Shown one piece after another: positions 5,546 through 45,921 of a DNA stretch of 64,000 nucleotides. Within the stretch, counting starts at the first letter, position 1; each line of letters starts with the position of its first letter. Under the pieces are notes generated by a model. That model did not search any database. It was not told where the DNA came from and saw only the letters and a program-made list of their open reading frames with translations. This stretch comes from a virus: IMG/VR virus record IMGVR_UViG_3300011113_000675, positions 64,001 through 128,000 of that record; one strand, given 5' to 3'. Made by a program: the position numbers and the translations under genes.

Positions 5546-5960
5546 GGGGATGAACGGTATTGATTGACATTGTTGGGGATAAGTGGCACGTAGTCAGAAT
5601 TCATCTATGACTTGAATCTATGGTGAAGAAAGTAAACGGCAATACTCTTGCTAAGATGTCTGCTTTAGGTTTGACTAGAGAAGCATCTGTTGTAACTGCT
5701 TAAGAAGTAGATACAACGTCAGGTCGATTGGGCATATAACCTAGGAACAGAAGCCCTCCAAGGTGGATACCACCCAAAGCGTATCAAAAGGTCACGTTCA
5801 GAGGGCTACCTTATTTCAAGTGAACTCGACACAGTTGTTGGTAACGATGTCAAAATAGGAACCATCTATTTCGGAAGGTATGAAAAACCTTGACCTAAAC
5901 GTGTAGGCATTTATTGTCAAAGTGAGCAAGACGCGAGTTCGAATCTCGCCATCTCCACCA
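5546..5960 (+). ncRNA. ssrA: tmRNA, predicted tag GNTLAKMSALGLTREASVVTA* (5638-5703)
   Basis: 5' GGGGATG pairs with 3' CATCTCC-ACCA with a G3:U70 pair; T-arm GCGAG-TTCGAAT-CTCGC; about 415 nt; TAAAC|GGC resume context; TACATTTG promoter element at 5529-5536. Confidence 0.92.
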
Positions 5961-13236: not shown

Positions 13237-13237
13237 G

Positions 13238-13312
13238 TTGGGATAGGTGGACTCGAACCACCAACCTTTCGCGTATCAGACGAAAGCTCTAAACCAATTG
13301 AGCTATATCCCA
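13238..13312 (-). tRNA. tRNA-Ile(GAT)
   Basis: Cloverleaf TGGGATA/TATCCCA; anticodon loop CT-GAT-AC; GGTTCGAGTCC T-arm. Confidence 0.9.
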
Positions 13313-13318
13313 TTGTTG

Positions 13319-13477
13319 CTGTAAGGGAAGGAGTCGAACCTTCACGAGGAGATTCAATTGATAACACAACGCTTGCAAGCTGGTGGTCTACCCCATATTA
13401 TCAATCTATTTCTTTATCCCCGCCCTCGAGACAGGAGGGTGTGTATGCCAAGTTCTAGAACATTTCACCACCTTACA
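13319..13477 (-). ncRNA. atypical tRNA-Asp(GTC)-like RNA with a 79-nt variable arm and an enlarged D-loop
   Basis: TGTAAGG/CCTTACA acceptor stem with G73; CCCTC-CTGTCTC-GAGGG anticodon arm; GAAGG-TTCGACT-CCTTC T-arm. Confidence 0.7.
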
Positions 13478-13491
13478 ATATAAACTTGAAG

Positions 13492-13576
13492 CAGAGAGTA
13501 TTGGATTCGAACCAATGCATCCCTTTCGAGATGACAGATTAGCAATCTGCTCCTTTAACCACTCAGGCAACTCTCT
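13492..13576 (-). tRNA. tRNA-Ser(GCT)
   Basis: AGAGAGT/ACTCTCT, G73, loop TT-GCT-AA, long variable arm. Confidence 0.9.
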
Positions 13577-15510: not shown

Positions 15511-15602
15511 TAGTCAGGACAGGATTCGAACCTGTAACTTTTGTCTTTTGGTTCCGAAAATCGGATTACTCACCAACACGTTACCCTTGCGTCACCTGAC
15601 TA
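15511..15602 (-). ncRNA. tRNA-like RNA (AGTCAGG acceptor family, copy 2) with the anticodon loop replaced by a 19-nt insert
   Basis: AGTCAGG/CCTGACT-A; perfect ACAGG-TTCGAAT-CCTGT T-arm; TTGGT...ACCAA stem enclosing the hairpin TCCGA-TTT-TCGGA. Confidence 0.6.
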
Positions 15603-45828: not shown

Positions 45829-45921
45829 TGGTGGCTGGGAGTGGGTTCGAACCACTGGCTCATCGGTGTTCACCCGATTGCTCTACCATGAATTCCGAAG
45901 AACTCCTGAGCTACCACAACC
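45829..45921 (-). ncRNA. atypical tRNA-Phe(GAA)-like RNA with a UUCG hairpin inserted in the D-loop
   Basis: Bulged acceptor GGTTG(T)GG/CCCAGCC-ACCA; GCTC/GAGC D-stem; ATCGG-GTGAACA-CCGAT; AGTGG-TTCGAAC-CCACT. Confidence 0.7.

Follow-up and report, generated by a model that had tools for sequence, protein, structure and literature searches.

Decoding tRNAs carry, almost without exception, a uracil at position 33 and a purine at position 37. There are also tRNAs that serve other ends, such as the non-proteinogenic tRNA-Gly of Staphylococcus which serves FemXAB as a cell-wall donor. Self-complementary loops through which RNA molecules dimerise are found in the retroviral DIS, and the phi29 pRNA has intermolecular loops.

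In bacterial tRNA-Asp, the strong determinants of aspartate identity are G73, G34, U35, C36 and C38, with G2-C71 as a minor one (PMC9976931). The G1-C72 pair is strictly conserved in bacterial tRNA-Asp and helps to position the 3' end in the E. coli AspRS (PMC9976931). The same pair position is important for GatCAB, where U1-A72 favours amidation and the presence of G1-C72 blocks it (Bailly et al. 2006, PMC1635274). The size of the D loop is an antideterminant for this enzyme, involving the supernumerary nucleotide U20A (PMC1635274). As for the variable region, engineered allo-tRNAs demonstrate that the arm can bear an extra folded module (PMC5389517; aptamer-tagged tRNAs, PMC7590224).

The 159-nt RNA described here is a real gene and a member of a family of RNAs found in Bacteroidota and their phages. 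No description of this family was found in the literature searched, and Rfam is without an entry for it. Judging from its sequence features, the family probably consists of uncatalogued, non-decoding tRNA-like RNAs that work off the ribosome.

Locus and RNA elements of the window

The window, i.e. the whole stretch of 64,000 nt that was analysed, belongs to a 142-kb IMG/VR viral record with an estimated completeness of about 46%. A minus-strand array of thirteen tRNA genes and a tmRNA gene were located in the window by ARAGORN and Rfam. The gene for the 159-nt RNA lies on the same strand as the array and is flanked by tRNA-Ile (13237-13312) and tRNA-Ser (13491-13576). ARAGORN made no call at this site, and no Rfam match was obtained there at either the gathering threshold or E<=10, RF00005 included. 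Only the flanking tRNAs were matched in annotated phage records. An earlier note on this DNA had described a 159-nt tRNA-Asp-like RNA with a branched 79-nt arm, a GUC anticodon and U37; this description was found to be correct together with its coordinates, the strand being minus. The features of the RNA are listed in Table 1. Its body contains the elements of a cloverleaf, namely a 7-bp acceptor stem, a 5-bp anticodon stem with a 7-nt loop, a 5-bp T stem, G18 G19 and the T loop.

Table 1. Positions of the giant-armed RNA and its parts in the window.
Feature	Positions	Strand	Basis
Whole giant-armed tRNA-like RNA gene, 159 nt	13319-13477	minus	Covariance model R1, full-length match
Acceptor stem, 5' strand (U1 G2 U3 A4), 7 bp; partner strand 13320-13326	13471-13477	minus	
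D arm: 3-bp stem, loop with G18 G19	13441-13468	minus	
D-loop insert, perfect palindrome, 10 nt	13452-13461	minus	Self-duplex versus hairpin energies
Anticodon arm: 5-bp stem and 7-nt loop C-U-G-U-C-U-C	13423-13439	minus	Direct sequence reading
Anticodon GUC	13430-13432	minus	
U37	13429	minus	
C38	13428	minus	
Variable arm, 79 nt: P1 base stem, P1b, conserved internal loop, H2 long helix, H3, palindromic segment	13344-13422	minus	
H3 hairpin with bulged A, hallmark of the 'alpha' arm type	13382-13394	minus	
Arm-junction perfect palindrome, 10 nt, candidate dimerisation site	13371-13380	minus	
T arm, canonical T loop	13327-13343	minus	
Discriminator G73; C74 encoded next, full CCA not	13319	minus	

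Other RNA elements were also observed in the window. The tmRNA is of the phage type and occupies positions 5546-5960 on the plus strand (Rfam, 76.6 bits). A 91-nt tRNA-like element (15511-15601, minus strand) lies between tRNA-His and tRNA-Glu; it was missed by ARAGORN and Rfam and scores 27.5 bits with the covariance model R1 described below. Both the 7-bp acceptor stem and the T arm of this element are intact, and its anticodon stem encloses a 19-nt loop with a small hairpin. Far from the array, ARAGORN located a 93-nt tRNA-SeC with a UCA anticodon (45829-45921, minus strand) which could be a TGA suppressor.

Secondary structure and covariation

The minimum free energy of the RNA folded as a single sequence is no better than chance when compared with shuffled sequences (z = -1.27), and the case for its structure is therefore a comparison with relatives. 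For this comparison, 47 diverse copies were aligned and the consensus structure was written by hand. In the alignment, 96.9% of the cells are paired and 22 of the 38 pairs show changes on both sides, whereas slid structures used as controls are only 46-59% paired and not one of the measures was reached in 500 shuffles. Pairs that have changed on both sides occur in all eight helices, three of which belong to the base and shaft of the arm. The acceptor stem is 99.7% paired with such changes at four of its seven pairs, and the anticodon stem is 100% paired. Both-side changes were also found at two of the three pairs in the D stem and at three of the five pairs in the T stem. Within the variable arm they occur at three of four pairs in P1, all three in P1b and five of seven in H2; in H3 the outer pair covaries and the inner pairs are invariant.

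The covariance model built from this alignment (R1) matches the window copy with 125.6 bits (E = 7e-31). No second copy was found in the window with R1, nor was any found in the 142-kb record. A lack of homologs with covarying insert helices would have refuted the reading of the earlier note, but such homologs exist on hundreds of contigs. A GGCA/UGCC pairing proposed by RNAalifold was dropped as it competes with the covarying D stem, and cofolding of the whole molecule gave trivial domain swaps only.

Family size and distribution

An exact 25-mer of the arm is shared with 37 other viral contigs. A broader family pattern, consisting of the anticodon loop and the T loop 62-92 nt apart, was matched by no fewer than 118 viral contigs and by at least 120 contigs of bacterial genomes. 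A total of 260 copies were parsed among the matches listed, of which 216 are distinct, and the position, insert and arm counts below refer to 212 parsed copies among these matches (91 phage, 121 bacterial). Nearly all of the bacterial contigs listed belong to the Bacteroidota, the carriers being Cytophagales, Cyclobacteriaceae, Spirosoma, Aquirufa, Marivirga, Flammeovirga, Saprospiraceae and Chitinophagales, and some of these contigs contain two to four copies in tandem. When 151 evenly drawn Bacteroidota genomes were searched with R1, true members were found in 15 genomes and only class II tRNAs were retrieved elsewhere. The family is mainly chromosomal in the Bacteroidota.

Architecture of the variable arm

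The variable arm is branched and ranges from 59 to 89 nt in length across the family. All arm types contain a base stem of 4-5 bp, a short second helix and an internal loop whose 5' strand is rich in purines and whose 3' strand contains an invariant A-A. This internal loop at the arm base is conserved in 182-205 of the 212 copies among the matches listed, regardless of the distal arm type. In the 'alpha' type, the long helix is closed by an invariant U-G and A-U and is followed by the near-invariant hairpin with the bulged A. Among the matches listed, this type comprises all 91 phage copies together with 53 bacterial ones, and the other bacterial copies have other modules. The distal arm varies by lineage and can differ between tandem paralogues, but it is joined to the tRNA body in the same way throughout.

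Several candidate motifs and RNA types were tried and rejected. A k-turn in the arm was dropped since tandem G-A is absent beside the base helix, and a Y-RNA or Ro site was dropped after reading of the alignment. The idea that the H3 hairpin mimics a codon for the anticodon of the same RNA was dropped as the triplet lies partly in the stem. The tRNA-like domain of tmRNA or YrlA was rejected given that an anticodon arm is present, no Rfam match exists at the site and no rsr gene occurs among the conserved neighbours. A group I intron, which had also been rejected in the earlier note, does not agree with the position of the insert in the variable region and not in the anticodon loop, with its length of 79 nt compared to at least about 200 nt for introns with a P1-P9 core, or with the lack of an Rfam intron match at the site.

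It is extremely improbable that an ordinary tRNA-Asp results from removal of the 79-nt insert as an intervening or mobile sequence. The insert is sharply bounded by the base stem at the variable-loop position and within phages its sequence is better conserved than the tRNA body, both of which would suit such an element. However, covariation of the arm helices extends over both bacteria and phages, the length and distal form of the arm are lineage-specific on an unchanging body junction, and no further copy of the insert occurs in the 142-kb record. No insert-free body with U1-A72 and a pyrimidine at position 37 was found, the shortest arm being about 30 nt (L268 and L269, see below), and both of these marks would remain after removal. 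We know of no bacterial splicing system that acts at a site in the variable region.

Acceptor end and anticodon loop

Position 73 is G and pair 2-71 is G-C in all 212 copies among the matches listed, while pair 1-72 is U-A in 209 and pair 3-70 is U-A in 206 of the same copies. C74 is encoded in nearly all copies and the full CCA in about 15%. As a side observation, most of the canonical tRNA-Asp genes of the hosts (L249-L254) encode the CCA, compared to about 18% of the bacterial giant-armed RNA genes. Every one of these bacterial giant-armed RNA genes keeps C74, a hint that their 3' ends mature by a different route.

A set of 17 copies collected with R1 alone was read separately because the pattern used for collection had a fixed anticodon loop. 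Among these model-found copies, positions 34-36 are GUC in 15 and C38 is present in all 17. Position 37 is U in 15 copies, C in two and a purine in none; position 33 is more variable (U in 13, C in three and G in one) and position 32 is either C or U. The window copy has both U33 and U37 in its anticodon loop. Two tandem members (L268 and L269; G140:C1:3852069-3852399) have an arm of about 30 nt and UUC (Glu-type) instead of GUC, and they keep U37, C38, U1-A72 and G73.

The aspartate identity set of G73, G34, U35, C36 and C38 is therefore present, a statement that concerns sequence only. As the AspRS determinants are kept and the U33 and purine 37 of decoding tRNAs are not, the family looks built for recognition by AspRS and not for codon reading. 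U1-A72 may weaken the charging because G1-C72 helps to position the 3' end in the E. coli AspRS.

The RNA could nevertheless be a working tRNA-Asp isoacceptor that decodes GAY for the phage, with a loop and arm that resist host nucleases targeting tRNAs. Its place within the array of thirteen tRNAs and the near invariance of the GUC anticodon agree with this, as does the absence of a canonical tRNA-Asp from the 142-kb record, although at about 46% completeness the missing half of the record may hold one. We consider a decoding role very unlikely. Four of the 17 model-found copies have C or G instead of U33 and a purine at position 37 never occurs, and the arm of 59-89 nt is about four times as long as the longest class II arms. 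In addition, a canonical tRNA-Asp with the usual loop and G1-C72 is kept in four of the five host genomes and in seven tRNA-rich phage loci. The earlier suggestion of a tRNA-scaffolded RNA that is very unlikely to be an ordinary decoding tRNA is supported. No gene for a class IIb synthetase or an asparagine synthase was found in the 142-kb record (about 46% complete).

Genes associated with the bacterial copies

A gene for a 154-aa regulator is divergent from the RNA at 56 of the 120 bacterial loci among the matches listed. About 130 nt separate its start from the RNA's 5' end, and suf genes follow the regulator. The best structure match of the regulator is E. coli AsnC (PDB 2CG4, E=7.5e-31), with the next match at 1e-20. 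It scores 156 bits against the NCBIfam AsnC model, which is under the curated cut-off of 227, and the next model gives 71. By these profile and structure matches the regulator is specifically AsnC-like among the Lrp/AsnC proteins. The AsnC neighbour is missing at the other 64 of the 120 bacterial loci among the matches listed, and a second recurrent chromosomal context without AsnC was observed at 16-19 loci (e.g. L235, L227, L221 and L215). Upstream in this second context are genes for an enzyme of the D-cysteine desulfhydrase/ACC-deaminase family and an RluD-like pseudouridine synthase, together with a 116-aa ORF; directly downstream and on the same strand, a 1447-aa protein without a Pfam match is encoded at 16 loci.

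Five carrier genomes were compared in their gene content. All five contain gatB, asnS and glnS, none contains asnA, and asnB is over the cut-off in three. Within the 151 sampled Bacteroidota, gatB was found in 126 genomes, representing all 15 carriers and 111 of the 136 non-carriers, and its presence in carriers is therefore not specific. With asnA in only four of the 151 genomes, its distribution is uninformative as to whether the RNA acts in its place. Bacteroides thetaiotaomicron, used as a control, lacks gatB. As AsnRS and GlnRS are both present in the five carriers compared, GatCAB is needless there for the translational supply of Asn-tRNA and Gln-tRNA. The same combination of AsnRS, GlnRS and GatCAB is described for Thermus, Deinococcus and Bdellovibrio (PMC4206432).

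Given its AspRS anticodon set and U1-A72, the RNA combines the marks for AspRS with the acceptor mark for GatCAB. The D loop has 11 nt on a 3-bp stem, with uncertain numbering, and the window copy adds the 10-nt insert to it; the presence of a D-loop insert in about half of the phage copies, including that of the window, may speak against amidation. The occurrence of AsnB in three of the five carriers speaks against the asparagine reading, as there is no obvious need for a second route to asparagine. Overall, the gene content and the marks allow an asparagine reading without proving it.

The same charging and non-decoding marks would be expected if the RNA were an aminoacyl donor that hands aspartate to a non-ribosomal acceptor (a lipid, a cell-wall precursor, a peptide or a small molecule) and uses its arm as a dock for the enzyme. 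The conservation of the arm-base internal loop under any distal type suits protein docking, and the differing distal arms of tandem paralogues agree with this possibility as well. However, the neighbours of the RNA in hosts and phages include no gene for a tRNA-dependent transferase, and neither U1-A72 nor the AsnC neighbour would be explained. A donor of this kind is in our view quite unlikely.

Palindromes, inserts and history of the phage copies

D-loop inserts were found in 48 of the 91 phage copies compared to only one of the 121 bacterial copies among the matches listed. Just past the bulged hairpin, a palindrome of at least 6 nt (6-12 nt) is present in 87 of the 91 phage copies, compared to 16 copies expected from shuffles, and it occurs in 18 different sequences. 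The same test applied to the bacterial alpha-type copies gave 8 of 53 against 8.9 expected, i.e. none beyond chance. For the arm palindrome of the window copy, the predicted energy is -1.5 kcal/mol as a hairpin and -19.1 kcal/mol as a self-duplex. The D-loop segment GTTC-TA-GAAC had been taken for a hairpin in the earlier note; it is actually a perfect palindrome for which the hairpin is predicted at 0.0 kcal/mol and the self-duplex at -14.8 kcal/mol. Palindromes of 6 nt are incapable of folding back on themselves. The predicted energies and the recurrence of the palindromes suggest that the phage copies are able to pair with themselves, i.e. to dimerise, and such self-pairing would fit partners that are themselves dimers, e.g. 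AspRS.

A maximum-likelihood tree of 203 copies places those of phages in four pure clades (67, 17, 4 and 1 copies) and requires only two changes between phage and bacterial labels. The alignment is short and kin share labels, and the tree therefore shows only that captures were few and old. As a group, the phage copies are derived and have gained self-complementary segments.

The surroundings of the RNA differ among the phages. No other tRNA occurs within about 5 kb of the RNA at 16 of the 40 phage loci examined, and on about 50 smaller phage contigs the RNA is placed between a 170-aa ORF and the terminase-portal module. In a group of phages of about 40-60 kb (L036:3010-9542 and about 50 related contigs) the RNA is the only tRNA-like gene and is located between a PD-(D/E)XK exonuclease module and TerL/portal. 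The 170-aa ORF and the small neighbouring ORFs were considered as partners of the RNA and rejected, as they belong to no family, the 170-aa ORF is absent from the window phage and the association is one of synteny only.

Many of the phage features also agree with a decoy or sponge, in which the RNA would bind a protein that recognises the tRNA-Asp loop (an anticodon nuclease from a toxin or defence system, AspRS or a modification enzyme) without productive turnover. On the phage side, multivalent copies would titrate the target protein during infection, in analogy to the phage pseudo-ToxI RNA which neutralises ToxN. The loop core G34-U35-C36-Y37-C38 is conserved and the decoding positions are not, the self-complementary segments were added in nearly all phage copies, and many small phages have the RNA as their sole tRNA-like gene. 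The few old phage clades further imply that phages have retained the RNA for a long time. The anticodon-loop hexamer (positions 33-38) is repeated in 27 of the 48 D-loop inserts, with 15 sequence variants, where 0.3 would be expected; however, this hexamer lies partly in a predicted stem and comes from one clade. A decoy would have no need of the invariant U1-A72, G2-C71 and G73 or of the encoded C74, which point to use of the 3' end. Moreover, no nuclease or toxin gene is present among the conserved host neighbours and the pairing with AsnC would be left unexplained. We therefore regard a decoy as rather unlikely. The inserts with the hexamer were found in L002:2739-2907 and 26 other phage copies which form a clade other than that of the window phage, and they may represent a partial duplication or a second protein-binding site.

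Proposed role of the RNA

The AspRS determinants, U1-A72 and the AsnC-like neighbour in the hosts favour a carrier of aspartate or asparagine over a pure decoy. We propose that RNase P and RNase Z would cut the RNA from the tRNA array, that CCA would be added as for its neighbours, and that the host AspRS would charge it with aspartate by means of G73, G2-C71, G34-U35-C36 and C38. The pyrimidine at position 37, the non-conserved position 33 and the 79-nt arm would exclude the RNA from the ribosome. U1-A72 may then make the RNA-bound aspartate a substrate of GatCAB, which would produce asparagine on the RNA, and a partner probably docks at the conserved inner loop of the arm. In the hosts this would constitute an RNA-borne step of asparagine supply or sensing under AsnC control. 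The phage copy would supply a carrier free of host control, and its palindromes may allow a dimer to form on dimeric partners, e.g. AspRS. To our knowledge there is no way of releasing asparagine from RNA.

The first half of this chain is likely. The full chain, i.e. a non-decoding Asp-charged carrier RNA that is probably amidated by GatCAB and tied to asparagine homeostasis, is put forward as the favoured, though tentative, reading of the conserved marks. Somewhat more doubtful is the fuller version in which a ribosome-excluded carrier would serve an AsnC-controlled asparagine step and phages, after capturing it, would have remodelled it so that it dimerises with itself.

If the family is as proposed, it would represent a widespread, uncatalogued class of tRNA-derived RNAs that use the tRNA maturation and charging machinery off the ribosome, with a range of about one tenth of the sampled Bacteroidota and more than 100 phage contigs. 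The family exposes a blind spot of tRNA finders and Rfam. GatCAB would gain a substrate even where AsnRS and GlnRS are already present in the bacterium, an AsnC-type regulator would be linked to an RNA gene, and phages would be seen to carry and remodel such carriers. The RNAs would also be a natural precedent for tRNAs with large functional modules, which would be of interest to genetic-code engineers.

Comparison with known systems

The phage palindromes resemble the loops of the DIS and pRNA in being exposed, purine-flanked segments of 6-12 nt in which the sequence varies and the self-complementarity is kept. This likeness concerns a possible mode of action only, with no homology, and the dimerisation is predicted. 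The family is similar to the non-proteinogenic tRNA-Gly of Staphylococcus in being a tRNA paralogue that exists beside the decoding species and is apparently diverted from the ribosome; the tRNA-Gly is of normal size and shape, whereas the family RNA has a giant arm and no linked transferase is known.

A helical extra arm formed from the variable region is shared with class II tRNAs and allo-tRNAs (Mukai et al. 2017, PMC5389517). In contrast to these, the arm of the family RNA is about four times longer, branched and provided with a conserved internal loop, and the acceptor and T stems are 7/5 instead of 8/4 or 9/3. Its identity is of the Asp type, unlike the class II tRNAs and tRNA-Sec, where a single-hairpin arm of about 10-25 nt goes with a Leu, Ser, Tyr or Sec anticodon or with acceptor and T stems of 8/5, 9/4, 8/4 or 9/3. 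Canonical tRNA-Asp(GUC) has the same 7/5 acceptor and T stems, G73, G2-C71, G34-U35-C36, C38, G18 G19 and T loop; the RNA differs from it in U1-A72, pyrimidine 37, the variable position 33, the 3-bp D stem and the giant arm.

The last comparison is with the tRNA-Asn of the indirect pathway, which uses AspRS and GatCAB in Thermus, Deinococcus, Helicobacter and Neisseria. Unlike this tRNA-Asn, the RNA has GUC and not GUU, a loop unfit for decoding and an arm of 59-89 nt; it also coexists with a normal tRNA-Asn and AsnRS, and its amidation is a prediction. The two have in common U1-A72, G73 and charging by AspRS, which is predicted for the RNA (PMC1635274, PMC3367201). The carriers further resemble Thermus and Deinococcus in having GatB beside AsnRS and GlnRS, and in those bacteria the pathway serves asparagine synthesis.
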